The position numbers and the translations under genes were made by a program. From IMG/VR virus record IMGVR_UViG_3300029536_000014, positions 1 to 46,001 of that record: 46,001 nucleotides of DNA. One strand, 5' to 3'. Positions 2,186-25,041 of the stretch are shown here, one piece after another; position 1 is the first letter of the stretch; every line of letters starts with the position of its first letter. This stretch comes from a virus. The notes under the pieces were generated by a model, which did not search any database, was not told the DNA's origin, and saw only the letters and a program-made list of their open reading frames with translations.

Positions 2186-3415
2186 ATGCTTAGCCCAGAA
2201 TATTTACGCCGGATAACAGAGGGCAGCGAACAAATTGCCGAAGAACTGCATCAATATATCATCTCTGAGATCGTGTCGAGAATGATGGCAAGAATCGGCA
2301 GGGGTGAGGATTATATTCTGACCAATGCCGATGCGTGGAGAATCAGAACACTACAGGAATCCGGTGAGCTACTAGAGGACATTCTGGCAGAATTATCCAA
2401 ATACACCAAACGTGAACAGCAGGAACTCCTTGAAGCGTTTGAAGATGCCGGAATCACTGCTCTCGATTATGATGATAAGATATACAAGGCGGCAGGATTA
2501 AGTCCGGTACCGCTCGAACAGTCGCCAGCTATGATAAGACTCATGGAGCGAAATATGCTTGCGACTATGGGAGAGTGGAAGAACTTCACAAGAACGACTG
2601 CAAGTGCCGCTCAAAGGCTCTATATTGAGCAGTGCGACCTTGCATACAACCATGTAATGACTGGGGCGGTTGGGTATACGCAAGCCATCAAAGAGGCAGT
2701 TAATAACGTTGTGAGTGATGGTGTTACGGTCACATATCCATCTGGCAGAAAAGACACGATTGAAACAGCAGTCGCACGTTCTGTTAGAACTGGTGTGGCT
2801 CAGGCTACTGGAGATATATCCCTCAAACGCATGGAAGAGATGGGCTGGGATTTAGTTCTGGTCAGTGCTCACATGGGAGCCAGAACAGGTGACGGTGGTG
2901 AGAACCCGGGAAATCACGCATGGTGGCAAGGAAAGATATACTCTCGTTCTGGCAAGAGCAAGAAATTTCCGCCGTTCTCATTGACCGGATACGGAACAGC
3001 AAGCGGACTGTCAGGAGTTAACTGTCGGCATAGCTTTGGGGCAAGTGACGGGGAATTTAATCCTTATGCAGAATTATCAGCACAGGATAAAGCCGACAAA
3101 GGTAAACAGTACGAAAAGGAACAGCGGCAACGTACTTACGAGCGAAGAATCCGAAAGGCAAAGAGAGAAGTCCTTGGAATGCAAACGGCGGTTGACAACT
3201 GCAAGGACGAACAGGCAAAATTCGCATTACAGCAAGACCTTGACAGGAAGTCTTATCTTTTGCAGAAACAAAATGCTGCATACAAAGAGTACTGCAAGCA
3301 GAATGGCCTGAGAGAATTGCAAGACCGGCTTATGATCGCCAAGTGGAACCGCCAGAATGCCGCAAAAGTCAGAGGAGCGGCAAAACGATATAAGACAGCA
3401 AAGGGGATTGACTGA
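2186..3415 (+). CDS. Head morphogenesis / minor capsid protein, Phage_Mu_F (SPP1 gp7) family
   Basis: 409 aa with RBS AGAGGTG. HMGARTGDGGENPGNHAWWQGKIY and GVNCRHSF match the MuF-domain pattern. The C-terminus is a basic coiled-coil. Confidence 0.85.
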   Translation: MLSPEYLRRITEGSEQIAEELHQYIISEIVSRMMARIGRGEDYILTNADAWRIRTLQESGELLEDILAELSKYTKREQQELLEAFEDAGITALDYDDKIYKAAGLSPVPLEQSPAMIRLMERNMLATMGEWKNFTRTTASAAQRLYIEQCDLAYNHVMTGAVGYTQAIKEAVNNVVSDGVTVTYPSGRKDTIETAVARSVRTGVAQATGDISLKRMEEMGWDLVLVSAHMGARTGDGGENPGNHAWWQGKIYSRSGKSKKFPPFSLTGYGTASGLSGVNCRHSFGASDGEFNPYAELSAQDKADKGKQYEKEQRQRTYERRIRKAKREVLGMQTAVDNCKDEQAKFALQQDLDRKSYLLQKQNAAYKEYCKQNGLRELQDRLMIAKWNRQNAAKVRGAAKRYKTAKGID

Positions 3416-3801
3416 TGGATAGATGGGAATATTACAATCCGAATCCTACGGGCGATCGAGTCGGAGATTGTACTGTCCGGGCAATATGCAAAGCAACCGG
3501 ATTTGATTGGGAAACGGTATTTACCGGACTGATGGTGCAGGCGTGCGCGCTGTCAGATATGCCAAGTGCAAATTATGTCTGGGGTGCGTATCTTTATAAG
3601 CATGGATACAGGCGTAAACTGATAGAACAGTCAGAACGATATATCTATACAGTCAATGATTTTTGCACAGACCATCCGACAGGTACATACATTCTCTGCA
3701 TAGATGGTCATGTGGTGACGGTACAGAACGGCAAATATTACGATACATGGGATAGTGGTAATGAGATCCCGGTATACTACTGGGAAAAGGAGAGCAAATG
3801 A
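3415..3801 (+). CDS. Hypothetical protein, possible papain-like thiol peptidase fold
   Basis: 128 aa, ATGA-coupled to the MuF gene. Cys19 (VGDCTVRA), His98 (DGHVV) and Asp (YDTWD) are spaced like a Cys-His-Asp triad. Family not recognised. Confidence 0.6.
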   Translation: MDRWEYYNPNPTGDRVGDCTVRAICKATGFDWETVFTGLMVQACALSDMPSANYVWGAYLYKHGYRRKLIEQSERYIYTVNDFCTDHPTGTYILCIDGHVVTVQNGKYYDTWDSGNEIPVYYWEKESK

Positions 3802-4103
3802 GCATATCAGAATTTGTACAAGTATTCCTCTCGATCTGCGGAGGAGTGTCTATTGTCGGAGGAGCGGTGGCTGTAATTCTTAAGTGGATTACTCCGGCGT
3901 TTCGACTTAACAAGCGAGTTGAGACACTGGAAGAACACGACAAACGAGATTACGAGAGTCTTCAGAGGATTGCGGAACGAGATTCATTGATTCTGGAAGT
4001 GTTATCAACCATGTTGGATAGTCAGATTAGTGGGAATAATGTAGAAGAATTAAAAAAAACAAAACAGAAGCTTACAAATTATCTTGCACAGAATCAGCGT
4101 TAA
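3798..4103 (+). CDS. Membrane-anchored coiled-coil protein
   Basis: 101 aa. N-terminal TM helix FLSICGGVSIVGGAVAVILKWI followed by a charged helical region; ATGA overlap with the upstream gene. Confidence 0.6.
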   Translation: MSISEFVQVFLSICGGVSIVGGAVAVILKWITPAFRLNKRVETLEEHDKRDYESLQRIAERDSLILEVLSTMLDSQISGNNVEELKKTKQKLTNYLAQNQR

Positions 4104-4126
4104 TTGCATTAATAAGAGGTATGCTC

Positions 4127-4327
4127 ATGAAATTATATGTGTTCACGAAAAAAGATATAGACAGGTTCTTGATAGAGTGTAATTTCACACCGGACGAAGA
4201 AAGACTGTTCCGGCTGAGATGTCAGGAACACACGCTTGAATACTGTGCTGAACAGATGAATGTGAGTATATCCACAGCGAAACGGTTAAGTCGGAGGGTA
4301 AACAATAAAATAATTAAAGTATGCTAA
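4127..4327 (+). CDS. Stand-alone sigma-70 region-4-like / LuxR-type HTH protein (candidate late-gene regulator)
   Basis: 66 aa from ATG 4127 (AAGAGG 7 nt upstream; ATG 4121 is too close to the RBS). TPDEERLFRLRCQEHTLEYCAEQMNVSISTAKRLSRRVNNKI has the region-4 HTH pattern. Confidence 0.6.
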   Translation: MKLYVFTKKDIDRFLIECNFTPDEERLFRLRCQEHTLEYCAEQMNVSISTAKRLSRRVNNKIIKVC

Positions 4328-4334
4328 AAAGTAA

Positions 4335-4366
4335 GGAGAGGATATTTCTACCCTCTCCCATTTTTT
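4335..4366. terminator. Bidirectional intrinsic terminator between convergent genes
   Basis: GGAGAGG (4335-4341) pairs with CCTCTCC (4352-4358), then CATTTTTT. An A-rich tract upstream gives a U-tract on the other strand. Confidence 0.75.
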
Positions 4367-4535
4367 AACAAAAATCTTCTTTTACAACCCTTTCAAGTAG
4401 TTTTATCAAATATTCTGGCGGAGTTCTTCTTTCTGCCTCCCAGTCTTCTATGGTTCTCTTGGGTATCTCGTACTTATCAGAAAAAACCTTCTGACTCAAT
4501 CCGGTAAGTGATCTTAATTCTTTTATTGTCATCAT
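4365..4535 (-). CDS. Small XRE-type HTH protein (56 aa), last gene of the antisense moron
   Basis: Not in the track (<60 aa). The reverse strand reads MMTIKELRSLTGLSQKVFSDKYEIPKRTIEDWEAERRTPPEYLIKLLERVVKEDFC. RBS GGAGA is upstream of ATG 4535. The pattern is antitoxin/Aca-like HTH. Confidence 0.7.
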   Translation of the reverse strand: MMTIKELRSLTGLSQKVFSDKYEIPKRTIEDWEAERRTPPEYLIKLLERVVKEDFC

Positions 4536-4542
4536 ACTCTCC

Positions 4543-4830
4543 TTAGTCTAAAACTTTTAAATACTGTCTGCGACCGTTCATGTTGTTATCCAGAGCATAA
4601 AAACAAGGATTTTTATTACCCGAAAGGACTTCATTTATTTCATAGTTCCATCCCCAGGGAGCCGTTACCATTAAATTCCCCATGGCGTTTTCGAACGTTT
4701 CCCAGCCTTCTGGAATTTCTACTGTCATTTCATCCCAACACGTTGCTGCACTGTGCGGTGCTCCGTATGTATATACGTTCCTTTTTTCGGCAGATAAAAC
4801 ACCATAATTGCAATAAATTTTAATTTTCAT
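4543..4830 (-). CDS. Hypothetical protein (95 aa), moron gene 2
   Basis: ORF with RBS AGGAGGAA upstream (reverse strand of 4832-4845); tightly packed between 4847-5167 and 4365-4535. No family recognised. Confidence 0.65.
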   Translation of the reverse strand: MKIKIYCNYGVLSAEKRNVYTYGAPHSAATCWDEMTVEIPEGWETFENAMGNLMVTAPWGWNYEINEVLSGNKNPCFYALDNNMNGRRQYLKVLD

Positions 4831-4846
4831 GTTGTATTCCTCCTTT

Positions 4847-5167
4847 TTATAAAACGCGATATCTCACGATATCTTCAACTTTCGCAGGACTTCCATACCA
4901 GTATTTTTCATCTGGATTCCATTTAAGCCCAAATTCTTTTAAAGTCTTTCTGCAATAAAAAGTATTTCCAGAAACGACTCCATCACCAAGATTAAAAAGA
5001 ACTTCACATCCGTCAAGGCAAGCGTTGAAATATTTGCCAAGTTTTGCAAGCTTGAGATCTTCTTTGGCTTTTTCCCATGCTCTTTTAAGAGCTACGGAAA
5101 TTGTGCATTTACACTGTCTTACGATTCCCCATGCGTTTTTCATGATTTCTGACTTGTTATACTTCAT
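4847..5167 (-). CDS. Hypothetical protein (106 aa), moron gene 1
   Basis: ATG 5167 is preceded by GGAGGTAGG. It is the first gene downstream of a sigma-A-type promoter. No family recognised. Confidence 0.65.
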   Translation of the reverse strand: MKYNKSEIMKNAWGIVRQCKCTISVALKRAWEKAKEDLKLAKLGKYFNACLDGCEVLFNLGDGVVSGNTFYCRKTLKEFGLKWNPDEKYWYGSPAKVEDIVRYRVL

Positions 5168-5210
5168 AGTGCCTACCTCCTAAATGTTTTTATTTCCTCT
5201 TTCTGATATT

Positions 5211-5239
5211 ATAATACCACGCAATGCGTGATAAGTCAA
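5211..5239 (-). promoter_or_regulatory. Sigma-A-type promoter with an inverted-repeat operator in the spacer
   Basis: Reverse strand reads TTGACT (5239-5234), a 17-nt spacer, then TGgTATTAT (-10 at 5216-5211, extended -10). The inverted repeat CACGC-AAT-GCGTG (5218-5230) sits between -35 and -10. Confidence 0.7.
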
Positions 5240-5316
5240 TACTTTTTTGACACTTTCTTGAACTTTTTAGATTGATATATCTATGTAAAAATATAATCAG
5301 AAAGGCGGTGTATAAG

Positions 5317-5787
5317 ATGGCATTATATAACAATCCTTATCAATATAGTTTTGGCGTTCCTGGGCAGATGAACCAGTTCCAGCAACAGCCTGTCCAGATT
5401 CCAACTCAACCAGTACAGCAACCACAGCAGAATAATAGCGGTATCCTGTGGGTATCCGGCGAAGTTGGTGCAAAATCCTATCTGGTAGCACCTGGGACAA
5501 GCGTTTTACTGATGGACAGTGAAAGTGAAAAGTTCTACATAAAATCCACAGACGTATCCGGCATGCCGCAGCCACTGCGAACGTTTGAATACCACGAGGT
5601 AGGCTCTCAGATGCCGCCTAAGCAGACTGTTCAGAACATGGACAGTAAATACGTCACCAGACAGGAATACGACGATTTAAAGGGCAAATACGAAGCTATC
5701 ATAAACCGATTAAATTCATTTTCTGAACCTGTTAGGGCTAATACCGTGCAGAAGTCAGCAATCAAGGGAGGAAATGCAGATGAGTAA
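5317..5787 (+). CDS. Gln/Pro-rich hypothetical protein
   Basis: 156 aa from ATG 5317 (AGAAAGGCGGTG upstream; the track start 5272 is TTG without an RBS). The N-terminus is a QQQPVQIPTQPVQQPQQ low-complexity tract. Confidence 0.65.
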   Translation: MALYNNPYQYSFGVPGQMNQFQQQPVQIPTQPVQQPQQNNSGILWVSGEVGAKSYLVAPGTSVLLMDSESEKFYIKSTDVSGMPQPLRTFEYHEVGSQMPPKQTVQNMDSKYVTRQEYDDLKGKYEAIINRLNSFSEPVRANTVQKSAIKGGNADE

Positions 5788-6001
5788 TCCATTATTTAAC
5801 GCACTTGGCGGTGGGATGCCGCAGGGAAATGGGCCAATGCAGATGATACAGCAGTTTATGCAGTTTAAGCAGAATTTTAAAGGAGATCCGAAAGCAGAAG
5901 TTGAGAAAATGCTACAGTCTGGAAGGATTTCACAGCAACAGCTTAATCAGGTTCAACAGATGGCAGGGCAGTTCCAACACATGCTGAAAGGAATGAAATA
6001 G
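5774..6001 (+). CDS. Small Gln/Met-rich hypothetical protein
   Basis: 75 aa; GGGAGG lies upstream of ATG 5774/5780. Composition is rich in Q, M and G. Confidence 0.6.
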   Translation: MQMSNPLFNALGGGMPQGNGPMQMIQQFMQFKQNFKGDPKAEVEKMLQSGRISQQQLNQVQQMAGQFQHMLKGMK

Positions 6002-6054
6002 TACATTACAATCTGGCCAGATTGATGTAAATATACAAAAAGGAGATTATAACT

Positions 6055-6834
6055 ATGGATGGAAATTATAGCTTAGCAGATATTGCCGCTGCTACTGGAA
6101 ACGGTAGAAATAATGACGGCATGTTTGGTGGAGATGGCAGCTGGTGGATTATTGTTTTATTCATTTTTGCTTTCTTCGGATGGGGAAACAACGGCTGGGG
6201 CAATAATGGCAACGGCGGCGGATATACAGCCACGGCAGCTACTCAGGCGGATATTCAGAGAGGATTCGACAATTCCGCAGTAATCAGCAAACTTGACGGA
6301 ATCAACAACGGTCTCTGTGATGGATTCTATGCAGTGAACAACGGTATGCTTACCGGACTCAATGGAATCAACACAAACATCATGCAGACTGGCTTCGGAA
6401 TTCAGCAGGCAATCAATGCTGATACTGTAGCGAATATGCAGAACGCCAACGCACTCCAGGCTCAGCTTGCGAACTGCTGTTGCGAAACCAGGGAAGCTAT
6501 TCAAGGCGTGAACTACAACATGGCGCAGAACACCTGTGCATTACAGAACACCATGAACAACAACACAAGAGACATTATTGACAGCCAGAACGCTGGAACA
6601 AGAGCCATTCTTGATTATCTTTGCAATGAAAAGATTTCTAACTTGCAGGCTGAAAACAATGATCTCAGACGCGCTGCTTCTCAGGATCGCCAGAGTGCGC
6701 TTCTCACAACTGCAATGGCTTCTCAGACACAGCAGCTCATTAATGCAATCAATCCAGCACCGATTCCGGCATATCAGGTTCCTAACCCGAACACATATTA
6801 CGGATGCGGATGCAACACCGGATGTAATTGTTAA
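6055..6834 (+). CDS. Gly/Asn-rich membrane protein with a Cys-rich C-terminus
   Basis: 259 aa with RBS AAAGGAG. The hydrophobic segment WWIIVLFIFAFF is flanked by GGDG and GWGNNGWGNNGNGGG. It contains internal CCC and ends YYGCGCNTGCNC. Confidence 0.7.
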   Translation: MDGNYSLADIAAATGNGRNNDGMFGGDGSWWIIVLFIFAFFGWGNNGWGNNGNGGGYTATAATQADIQRGFDNSAVISKLDGINNGLCDGFYAVNNGMLTGLNGINTNIMQTGFGIQQAINADTVANMQNANALQAQLANCCCETREAIQGVNYNMAQNTCALQNTMNNNTRDIIDSQNAGTRAILDYLCNEKISNLQAENNDLRRAASQDRQSALLTTAMASQTQQLINAINPAPIPAYQVPNPNTYYGCGCNTGCNC

Positions 6835-6897
6835 CAACTTCATATCGAGAGTATCTTTCGATTGATTCGGATGTCGGCTTATGCCGTATTACACAGA

Positions 6898-6924
6898 GGG
6901 GCAGGCTGAGACCTGTCCTTTTGT
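6898..6924 (+). terminator. Putative intrinsic terminator
   Basis: GGGGCAGG / CCTGTCC(T) stem with a 6-nt loop, followed by TTTTGTG. Confidence 0.5.
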
Positions 6925-6944
6925 GATATGAAAGGAGTATTTTT

Positions 6945-7367
6945 ATGGCAGAATTTACAAATGTAGCTGCTCAGACTGTAGCAGCAAATGGAAACGTAGT
7001 ATTTTCAAACACAGCAGTCAAAGGTTCTAACTGCATTCATCACAGGGAAGGAAGCGGGATTATTACGCTGAGAGGGTTTACTAACCAGTGCAAGGCTAGA
7101 TTTTTCGTGGACTTCTCTGGTAATATCGCAATTCCAACAGGCGGTACTGTCGGAGCTATTTCTCTGGCTATTGCAATCTCTGGTGAACCTGTATTATCTT
7201 CACAGATGATTTCCACACCGGCAGCAGTAGATCAGTACAACAATGTGTCCTCTGGTATCTATATTGATGTACCTCGCGGATGTTGCGTTAATATCGCAGT
7301 AGAGAACACAAGCGATCAAGCTATTTCTGTTGCGAACGCAAACATTGTTGTGACCAGAGAAGCATAG
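6945..7367 (+). CDS. Beta-rich protein, possibly a TNF/C1q-like jelly roll (BclA C-terminal-domain-like)
   Basis: 140 aa with RBS GAAAGGAG. Alternating hydrophobic beta pattern: ARFFVDFSGNIAIPTGGTVGAISLAIAISG...VNIAVENTSDQAISVANANIVVTR. The fold call is pattern-level only. Confidence 0.6.
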   Translation: MAEFTNVAAQTVAANGNVVFSNTAVKGSNCIHHREGSGIITLRGFTNQCKARFFVDFSGNIAIPTGGTVGAISLAIAISGEPVLSSQMISTPAAVDQYNNVSSGIYIDVPRGCCVNIAVENTSDQAISVANANIVVTREA

Positions 7368-23949: not shown

Positions 23950-25041
23950 TTATTTCGTGTTGCATTTTGTGTTGCATAGCTTTGAAAAATAATCATTCCC
24001 AATTTCATTCATCTCTTTTTCTCGATCAACCAGAACGTGCCGATATACATTTTTTAATGTGGTATCATCCTCCCAACCGCCGCGCTGCATAATATATACA
24101 TCTGGAATTCCAAGAGTATGCAACTCAGATGCGCAATAATGACGCAAATCATGAAAACGGAAATGATGTATATGATTATCCTCTAAAACATCAGCGAATC
24201 TATTAGATATTTGCGCCGGATTCAAATTTGTTATTTTTCCATGTATACCTTTAAGTTTTTCTGCAACGAAATCCGGAAATGGAATAAAACGATCGCCAGC
24301 AAAAGATTTTGGTCTTTTGATAACCCAACCATGAGAATCATTCATAACCATAGCATATTCGACATGTACTATGTTCTGCTTGATATGATCAGAATTAAGC
24401 GCGCAGATTTCTGACCGCCTCATTGGACCGAATGCTGCCAGAAGAACAGGTATCTCTAATTCACTACCTACAGTACATTCAATTACCTTTTTGACTTCGG
24501 CAGATGTAGGTACATAGATTTTCGGTCTTACCTTTTTAGGTAAGGAAGTTCTTAAGATGAAATCCGAACGATAAGTCTTCAAGACAGTAGAAAGAAAGCC
24601 ATGCATATTGTACACAGTTTTTGGCGAATGAGTAAGTGCTTCACGATTCATTTCAGCTTGAACATCCTCTTGAGTGATTTCCATTATATTTAATGACATA
24701 AGTTTAGCCATGTCTCTTTTGACAGATCGCTTATATTCTCTAATAGTTCCAGGGGATAAAACACCTGTTCTGCTTTCTATGTATTTATTACATGCCTCTT
24801 TTAATGTCATATCTTCTGGTGGAACATATCGCGCAGTCAATACTTCACTTTCTTTTTTTGCTGCCCATTCGGCAGCCATTTGCTCACAGATTCGCTTCCC
24901 TTTTTTGCTAGGATCTGAGCATGTAAAAGATTTATAAACCCTTTTCTTTTTGATGGTCCCGTCTGATAATGGGATTTCTTCGATGTGACTGAATACCTGA
25001 CATCTCCATGAGCCAGATGGCAGTTTTTTTGCAGTTGCCAT
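23950..25041 (-). CDS. int: Tyrosine integrase
   Basis: 363 aa. The C-terminal HDLRHYCASEL...GGWEDDTTLKNVYRHV carries the H-x-x-R and catalytic Tyr motifs. Adjacent to the attP core. Confidence 0.9.
   Translation of the reverse strand: MATAKKLPSGSWRCQVFSHIEEIPLSDGTIKKKRVYKSFTCSDPSKKGKRICEQMAAEWAAKKESEVLTARYVPPEDMTLKEACNKYIESRTGVLSPGTIREYKRSVKRDMAKLMSLNIMEITQEDVQAEMNREALTHSPKTVYNMHGFLSTVLKTYRSDFILRTSLPKKVRPKIYVPTSAEVKKVIECTVGSELEIPVLLAAFGPMRRSEICALNSDHIKQNIVHVEYAMVMNDSHGWVIKRPKSFAGDRFIPFPDFVAEKLKGIHGKITNLNPAQISNRFADVLEDNHIHHFRFHDLRHYCASELHTLGIPDVYIMQRGGWEDDTTLKNVYRHVLVDREKEMNEIGNDYFSKLCNTKCNTK
23954..23979. repeat. attP arm repeat (2 x GTGTTGCAT), right arm, overlapping the integrase 3' end
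   Basis: TTCGTGTTGCATTTTGTGTTGCATAG. On the reverse strand it encodes the integrase C-terminal tail CNTKCNTK. Confidence 0.6.

Follow-up and report, generated by a model that had tools for sequence, protein, structure and literature searches.

The phage genome recorded in IMG/VR as IMGVR_UViG_3300029536_000014 carries, on the strand opposite to its head genes, a cassette of three small genes with a promoter and a terminator of its own. We analysed positions 1 to 46,001 of this record (46,001 nucleotides (nt), hereafter the window) and consider it probable that the cassette is an anti-defence operon shut off by its own small helix-turn-helix (HTH) protein, in the manner of the anti-CRISPR-associated (Aca) regulators, and that it occupies a hypervariable hot spot in a temperate, siphovirus-like phage of human-gut Lachnospiraceae. 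This reading is carried by the anatomy of the cassette, by its insertion/deletion polymorphism among related phages, by a constant frame of promoter, operator and HTH gene around shuffled cargo genes, and by the homology of one product to the N-terminal domain of the anti-CRISPR (Acr) protein AcrIIA3.

The cassette is a clean insertion, because a phage that is ~86% identical to the window has only 55 base pairs (bp) at this place. This phage, MT835739.1 (L001, a 46-kilobase human-gut phage), aligns at ~86% identity to window 3000-4325 and 5282-7000, and its 55 bp, which contain a terminator of their own, stand where the window has 956 bp (4326-5281). A preliminary description of the locus, made from the sequence of the window, had called the three genes a moron, and this related phage without the 956 bp supports that status. 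Within the cassette the GC content falls to 35-40%, and the GC skew is inverted over the span. A reading of the cargo as virion components was rejected, since closely related phages lack or replace these proteins.

A second phage, MT839401.1 (L002), contains two tandem antisense operons at the same place. The first has a promoter with TCACTCA-T-TGAGTGA, a 119-amino-acid (aa) protein, and a 59-aa HTH protein; the second has a near-identical promoter, followed by an orthologue of the 106-aa protein and an unrelated 97-aa protein, and contains no HTH gene. Such a duplicated promoter/operator without an HTH gene of its own is present in L002, L017, L060, L065, L068, and L079. When IMG/VR was scanned for the 17-mer TATTATAATATCAGAAA, which comprises the -10 and start region of the promoter, more than 119 loci were found. 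Distinct cassettes with the TCACnCAnTGnGTG type of operator number 48, and in these TTGAC(A/T) is followed by a 17-nt spacer holding TCACnCAnTGnGTG and then by TATTATAATATCAGAAA; most of them end in an HTH protein of 54-64 aa. Nearly all IMG/VR cassettes with this operator sit between homologues of the window genes 4121-4327 and 5272-5787, and the flanking proteins of those phages are 90-97% identical to those of the window.

The content of this hot spot varies from two to four genes in one operon, with up to two tandem operons. Clustering of the encoded proteins gives the HTH family and ~11 unrelated cargo families of 45-180 aa, several members of which are strongly acidic. Written as protein lengths, the layouts include 106-95-HTH (the window, L124), 98-172/179-95/97-HTH, 95-77-71-HTH, 127-109-HTH, 119-HTH, 45-HTH, 106-HTH-84-96, and double cassettes, as well as a 147-aa protein accompanied by an HTH fused to a 217-247-aa protein; a fusion of the HTH to a 126-aa protein is also found. 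The immediate upstream partner of the HTH belongs to the 95-, 119-, 71-, 45-, 46-, 106-, or 147-aa family, or is missing. The preliminary description had proposed following the HTH into related phages to see which cargo travels with it, and the outcome is a common frame with ~11 shuffled cargo families.

The anatomy of the window's cassette is summarized in Table 1. All three minus-strand genes that the preliminary description had read here (106, 95, and 56 aa) are present, each preceded by a Shine-Dalgarno sequence (AGGAGG, AGGAGG, and AAGGAG, respectively). The HTH gene is co-oriented with the cargo genes, and neighbouring genes are spaced by 7-16 bp. The near-consensus promoter and the bidirectional terminator of that description are likewise found, and the inverted repeat in the promoter spacer turns out to be one base per arm longer than had been noted.

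Table 1 Features of the antisense cassette, with positions in the window
Feature	Positions	Strand	Description
Whole inserted cassette, 956 bp	4326-5281	-	Absent from related phage MT835739.1; low GC, inverted skew
Gene 1, 106 aa	4847-5167	-	AcrIIA3-N-like helical hairpin (residues ~1-45) and DUF5710-like beta/alpha module (~46-106)
Gene 2, 95 aa	4543-4830	-	All-beta conserved orphan, motif CNYGxLxAEKRxxYTYG
Gene 3, 56 aa	4365-4535	-	XRE/HTH_3 protein, candidate autorepressor (Aca-like); terminal gene kept across cassettes
A-rich stretch 5' of the -35	5240-5262	-	aaagtgtcaaaaaagta; UP-element-like; conserved among cassettes as tcaaaaaagtNtcaaaaaagta
Sigma-70-type promoter	5211-5239	-	TTGACT (5239-5234), 17 nt, TGgTATTAT, extended -10
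Operator candidate	5218-5230		CACGCA-T-TGCGTG, perfect palindrome in promoter spacer, overlaps TG of extended -10
5' untranslated region (putative)	5168-5204	-	Predicted start ~5204 within conserved AATATCAGAAA; ribosome-binding site AGGAGG
Intrinsic terminator, folds on both strands	4334-4359		Shared end of the cassette and of the convergent 68-aa gene (4121-4327)

The promoter has its -10 hexamer TATTAT at 5216-5211 and TG at -15/-14. Its two hexamers match the consensus at 10 of 12 positions, and it is the top-scoring promoter-like site in 3500-6500. This match by itself is no evidence, because promoter-like sites are not enriched in that region (4 found against 7.6 expected). What we count as evidence is the same arrangement at the head of at least 48 distinct cassettes. 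The A-rich stretch upstream may act as an UP element. The palindrome in the spacer is a perfect 6-1-6 repeat; a perfect arm of at least 6 occurs in ~0.6% of random 17-mers with matching composition. Its right arm takes in the TG of the extended -10, and because of this overlap a bound dimer would occlude RNA polymerase. The site is unique, as no second copy of the operator was found elsewhere in the window. The 5' untranslated region, in which we looked for an RNA structure like that of Aca2, is predicted to be unstructured (0 kcal/mol), and its core TATTATAATATCAGAAA is conserved among cassettes. At the other end, the terminator hairpin has an 11-bp stem, with folding energies of -18.3 kcal/mol on the minus strand and -13.4 kcal/mol on the plus strand, and is followed by a U-run on each strand.

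The 56-aa terminal protein is an XRE HTH, as had been described: it passes the Pfam model HTH_3 with 26.4 bits against a gathering threshold of 23 (E = 7.2e-6). It is essentially the HTH alone, without an extra toxin-neutralising domain. Across the cassettes, the variable position of the operator half-sites reads T/T, C/C, G/G, or C/T, with G paired only with G, and such symmetric, two-sided changes are what a dimer-binding site would show. All three distinct GLSQK variants of the HTH accompany a G/G operator, and ~30 [ST]QQ variants accompany C or T. We considered a specificity rule linking the lysine of 'SQK' to G in the operator and rejected it, as it fits three cassettes and fails in L132. 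The conservation of the dyad, together with the partial correlation between HTH and operator, gives indirect support to binding by the repressor. The HTH protein is a candidate for binding the palindrome and repressing the promoter.

The larger of the two cargo proteins is related to AcrIIA3. Against the NCBIfam model AcrIIA3_fam (NF033948, an equivalog), the window's 106-aa protein scores 21.3 bits (E = 2e-4), with residues 3-38 aligned to positions 1-51 of 119. Among 96 relatives, 75 match this model and no other family (best E = 2.4e-10, model position 1 to ~60), and for ten relatives inspected one by one the scores are 19-38 bits, with alignments from model position 1 to ~60-98 of 119. The shared part comprises the N-terminal 40-60 residues, (K)YNKSEIMKxAW ... 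[ST][FIL]SxxLKxAWxxAK, a predicted helical hairpin. The proteins examined individually score 21-38 bits where the cut-off is 70 and are aligned over roughly the first half of the model only, and the C-terminal part of the 106-aa protein is, unlike that of AcrIIA3, a DUF5710-like beta/alpha module. Judged from these matches, the 106-aa protein is homologous to the N-terminal half of AcrIIA3 without being a member of the family.

The close family of the 106-aa protein comprises 16 clusters, all metagenomic. Its profile retrieved 1048 matches from 1.8 billion representatives, and these resolve two independent modules. The N-terminal one (~residues 1-50), with the motif MKYNKSEIMKxAW ... SxxLKRAWxxAK, heads many small proteins with differing C-termini; the AcrIIA3-like domain is a widespread module joined to several of these. 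The AlphaFold2 model of the 106-aa protein (predicted local distance difference test (pLDDT) score 89) contains a helical hairpin and a beta/alpha domain. Foldseek comparison of this model with the PDB gave no match at E <= 0.001, and PDB sequence searches with the single protein and with the family profile found nothing.

The 95-aa protein is predicted by AlphaFold2 to be an eight-stranded beta protein (pLDDT 94), and Foldseek found no match for this model at E <= 0.001 in the PDB or BFVD. The preliminary description had recognised neither cargo protein and had proposed Foldseek on both models; structure gave no identity to either. The 95-aa family contains more than 120 clusters at 55-93% identity. 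Its profile weakly matches residues 44-92 to PDB 4epc (E = 3.5e-4), a structure of the repeats (R2ab) with which the AtlE amidase of staphylococci binds the cell wall; we rejected this match as unreliable, as Foldseek fails to recover it. A homologue of 98 aa, encoded among phage early genes in L008-L012, has a 458-aa LRR_5 protein, an opposite-strand Fic-domain protein, and YopX as neighbours, with no adjacent HTH.

Searches with the window's 106- and 95-aa proteins and ten cargo representatives against Pfam and NCBIfam gave no curated family beyond the sub-threshold AcrIIA3_fam N-domain, and PHROGs searches with these proteins matched only families of unknown function; with the 56-aa protein included, the remaining matches in the three libraries were generic HTH ones. 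PADLOC, run on the window proteins, returned nothing for the 106- and 95-aa proteins. PDB searches with single sequences and family profiles of the 119- and 179-aa cargo proteins also found nothing. Orphan cargo without a family or structural match is typical of anti-defence proteins.

The layout of these cassettes is that of known acr-aca loci. Such loci are marked by a strong promoter whose -35 and -10 enclose an inverted repeat, by small orphan cargo genes, and by a small HTH protein (PMC8934645, PMC12282945, PMC12658196), and also by duplicated promoters that govern a neighbouring operon without an HTH, and by regulator fusions (PMC12658196, PMC12282945). The inverted repeats bound by Aca11 overlap a pair of near-identical TTGACA-17-TATACT promoters, and one promoter of the pair drives an acrIIA3 operon (PMC12658196); those bound by Aca13 and by the AcrIIA32 fusion lie between -35 and -10 (PMC12282945). 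For most Aca families, control of adjacent operons has been predicted (bioRxiv 10.64898/2026.07.27.740549). The hot-spot cassettes resemble the Aca11 and Aca13 loci of Streptococcus in the TTGACA-17-(-10) promoter with an inverted repeat, the small unrelated cargo, the HTH gene in the operon, the duplicated promoter/operator for a regulator-less neighbour operon, and the AcrIIA3-type protein in a co-regulated operon. They differ from them in that the HTH proteins share no detectable similarity, no validated Acr is present, the hosts are gut Lachnospiraceae, and, in this phage, the cassette is antisense inside a head-gene block. The fusions of HTH and cargo recall the Acr-Aca fusions AcrIIA32 and AcrIIA13-15 (PMC12282945, PMC8934645). 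Of the acr-aca-type operon proposed in the preliminary description, the layout therefore stands, with a conserved frame of promoter, palindrome, and terminal HTH around variable cargo, and the AcrIIA3 N-domain adds to it; anti-defence activity is the part that we infer.

The position of the cassette has a parallel as well. Mu-like Pseudomonas phages such as JBD30 carry a variable anti-CRISPR locus between head-morphogenesis genes, regulated by Aca1. As in that locus, the site here lies between MuF/minor-capsid and scaffold/capsid genes, its content varies among syntenic phages, and it has a strong promoter that would need repression by a co-encoded HTH. Unlike that locus, the cassette runs against the head genes (the one in L138-141 runs with them), has its own both-strand terminator, and contains different regulator and cargo families.

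We propose that after phage DNA enters the cell, host RNA polymerase would fire the promoter at 5239-5211 and transcribe the 106-, 95-, and 56-aa genes leftward. Transcription of the cassette would end at the terminator at 4359-4334, which would also insulate the convergent head-gene transcript. As the 56-aa HTH protein builds up, its dimer would bind CACGCA-T-TGCGTG over the extended -10 and shut the promoter, and this would keep strong antisense transcription from persisting into late head-gene expression. The two upstream proteins would be the payload and would most likely inhibit host defence, the 106-aa protein via its AcrIIA3-like N-domain and DUF5710-like module, the 95-aa protein by binding through its compact beta fold. 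Binding and repression by the HTH protein, the timing of expression, and the anti-defence activity with its target are the inferred parts of this scheme.

Several observations weigh against this proposal. Concerning the cargo, no protein reaches the threshold of a validated anti-CRISPR or anti-defence family (in Pfam and NCBIfam, and in PADLOC for the window proteins). AcrIIA3 membership is not indicated, as the window protein scores 21.3 bits and the ten examined relatives at most 38 against the cut-off of 70, in the N-terminal half only. DUF5710-like modules elsewhere are joined to primases, RNase H, and SAP-domain proteins, which may hint at a function connected with DNA instead. Conservation in the 95-aa family is higher than is usual for anti-defence proteins, and the family is also found without an HTH among early genes (L008-L012). 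Concerning the regulator, the HTH family profile has 43 PDB matches at E <= 10, of which the best are Atu1735, HigA-2 (E = 5e-5), and the 434 repressor, and no chain named Aca is among these solved structures; nor did the HTH protein give any BLASTP alignment at E <= 100 with Aca11 (WP_009730540.1) or Aca13 (WP_094140901.1). In L132, a G/G operator is combined with an SQQ HTH, an exception to the correlation between lysine and guanine. We also note that, by the published criteria, a regulator named as an Aca should among other things be associated with more than two types of validated Acr (PMC8934645), and that the HTH here goes with ~11 cargo families, none of which is a validated Acr.

An alternative that we consider unlikely is that the cassette is a moron expressed from the prophage for the benefit of the lysogen, in superinfection exclusion, defence against other phages, or lysogenic conversion, with the HTH protein setting its level. 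An integrase at 23950-25041 marks the phage as temperate, and with a sigma-70 promoter that does not depend on the phage transcription programme the cassette could be expressed in the lysogen. The same type of cassette also occurs next to lysis genes at a prophage end, a classic moron site. There, a homologue of the 95-aa family (P0025) lies in an operon convergent with endolysin and holin genes (L003-L007), and the contigs differ in the host DNA that borders it on the outside. This operon begins with TTTACA-ta-CCACTCA-T-TGAGTGG-TATTATAATATCAGAAA and encodes a 127-aa protein with the N-terminal motif of the 106-aa protein, a 99-aa homologue, acidic 76-aa and 71-aa proteins, and then a 57-aa HTH protein. 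Against a benefit to the lysogen, the window's 106- and 95-aa proteins have no PADLOC match and, by eye, no long hydrophobic stretch, and the cargo matches no enzymatic domain in Pfam or NCBIfam. The cargo is small and partly acidic, and its sole family link is to an anti-CRISPR N-domain. Rapid shuffling of cargo behind a very strong, self-limiting promoter is closer to known anti-defence loci.

Ranking just below it, and likewise improbable in our judgement, is an early accessory or host-takeover role on nucleic acids, for example in replication or at DNA ends, with the same regulation and not directed at immunity. This alternative draws on the C-terminal module of the 106-aa protein. The module (~68-108), with the motif GNT[FY]xxRKxLKxxGxxWxxxxKxW, occurs in up to eight copies (often 4-8 in tandem) in proteins of 200-2000 aa, and these long proteins, which match Pfam DUF5710, also contain a RepB primase, RNase H, SAP, or Phage_Mu_F domain. 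The multi-repeat proteins fetched by positions 68-108 of the family profile match DUF5710 (PF18974) with E down to 2e-21, and the module shares with that family the motif G-x-T-[YF]-x3-K-x2-[LI]-K-x2-G-x2-[WF]-x4-5-K-x-W. Unlike the long DUF5710 proteins, the 106-aa protein has a single copy of the module, and it has itself no Pfam DUF5710 match at E <= 1. The module could equally be a protein-binding adaptor, and a role on nucleic acids leaves unexplained the interchangeable, unrelated cargo and the presence/absence polymorphism among near-identical phages.

The preliminary description had also allowed for a toxin-antitoxin operon, on account of a HigA/MqsA-like look of the HTH. This likeness is found at a sub-threshold level in the HTH part, with 23.1 bits against a cut-off of 61.8 for the MqsA-family model TIGR03830 (E = 5e-5) and the PDB profile match to HigA-2, and it does not extend above threshold, so the protein is not a member of that family. 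Like HigBA and MqsRA, the cassette encodes a small XRE-type HTH last and has a palindromic operator in the promoter. A type II system, with the 56-aa protein as antitoxin and the 95-aa protein as toxin, is nevertheless very improbable: the HTH has at least six different upstream partners, is sometimes first in its operon or fused to larger proteins, and has no toxin-neutralising domain; the 95-aa family occurs without it, and its high-confidence model matches no RelE, HigB, MqsR, or other PDB toxin fold; and the interchangeable cargo shows no resemblance to toxins in Pfam, NCBIfam, PADLOC, or Foldseek.

The frame around the Aca-like HTH is not confined to the hot spot, and related operators are found at the same position of the promoter in other phage lineages. 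In L138-141, an HTH protein 56% identical to that of the window (P0401) is encoded between MuF and a scaffold gene, in the same orientation as the head genes; its promoter reads TTGACA-ta-TCACTCAATGGGTGA-TATAAT, the HTH gene is preceded by a 46-aa gene and followed by four or five small genes that vary. A contig of a Lachnospiraceae metagenome-assembled genome (MAG) has a G/G operator ahead of three genes, the last of which encodes a 126-aa protein ending in the HTH. Elsewhere the HTH gene stands alone or is the first gene after the promoter.

The 17-mer TATTATAATATCAGAAA (window 5200-5216, minus strand; L013-L131) looks like a promoter 'chassis' shared by gut phages. The -35 lies exactly 17 nt 5' of it in 109 of 128 IMG/VR matches, and the spacers comprise 54 different sequences, of which 36 have a perfect inverted-repeat arm of at least 4 nt, compared with 17% of random 17-mers. 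Several further operator classes occur at these loci beside the TCACnCAnTGnGTG type. One of them has CACC-N5/6-GGTG in the spacer (L015, L019, L021, L028, L033, and others) and precedes operons that encode a shuffled set of small acidic proteins (70, 75, 84, 99-104, and 192 aa), then a 210-214-aa protein and small Cys-rich proteins, with no XRE HTH. By eye, the 210-214-aa protein has a zinc-ribbon/AP2-type look. An AP2-domain gene accompanies acrIIA3 in Streptococcus (PMC12658196).

It is conceivable, and we advance it tentatively, that gut Firmicutes phages share one promoter chassis (A-rich stretch, TTGACA, 17-nt spacer, TATTATAATATCAGAAA) in which the spacer operator alone is swapped to match the co-encoded regulators, and that this chassis marks a large, unrecognised set of anti-defence islands. 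If so, the cassettes would represent a new Aca family and roughly ten new families of anti-defence proteins, and the AcrIIA3-like N-domain would be a reusable adaptor joined to varied effector modules in ~1000 protein clusters. A chassis with swappable operators, if general, would offer a cheap, sequence-only route to accessory and anti-defence operons in gut viromes. Lachnospiraceae are dominant bacteria of the human colon. To our knowledge, very few anti-defence genes are known from their phages, and no Aca regulator has been described there. The locus provides practical handles in the DNA signature of promoter and operator, in the small HTH as a marker, and in naturally occurring isogenic phages that hold no cassette, one, or two. 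With these handles, about ten candidate anti-defence families can be tested directly, which opens such discovery for phages of gut Clostridia. The locus also connects AcrIIA3, itself poorly understood, with a modular superfamily that is far larger.

By its integrase module and its morphogenesis genes, the window belongs to a temperate, siphovirus-like phage of the human gut. Apart from the cassette, all functional genes in 59-23681 are on the plus strand, so the region is otherwise unidirectional, as previously described; this run contains the genes for minor capsid 2, scaffold, major head, tape measure, tail, and endolysin. Downstream of it come the minus-strand integrase module and then plus-strand replication genes. 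A scan of species-representative genomes for the promoter and operator gave a single match, an uncultured Lachnospiraceae MAG. The host is assigned to Lachnospiraceae because of this match and of one protein named from uncultured Blautia.

The gene to the left of the hot spot (4121-4327, plus strand) encodes a 68-aa protein that resembles sigma-70 region 4 (Pfam Sigma70_r4, E = 7e-3) and matches PHROG 1190, 'RNA polymerase sigma factor' (E = 4e-6). It stops 7 bp short of the terminator shared with the cassette. In the far more distant phage L054, a protein 91% identical to it is encoded beside a cassette, and the other flanking genes are only ~30-35% identical. To the right, just 5' of the first gene past the hot spot (window ~5290-5316, plus strand), lies AAAATATAATCAGAAAGGCGG, which is like the -10/start core and has no obvious -35. 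This site may perhaps be a promoter that restarts head-gene transcription past the terminator. Further to the left, the N-terminal part of a 128-aa protein (3415-3801, plus strand) is matched by PHROG 15863 (312 positions, E = 4e-9), and positions 243-274 of the same PHROG also match the DUF5710-like C-terminal module of the 106-aa protein (E = 9e-3). As one PHROG matches both modules, fusions of the two exist in other phages.

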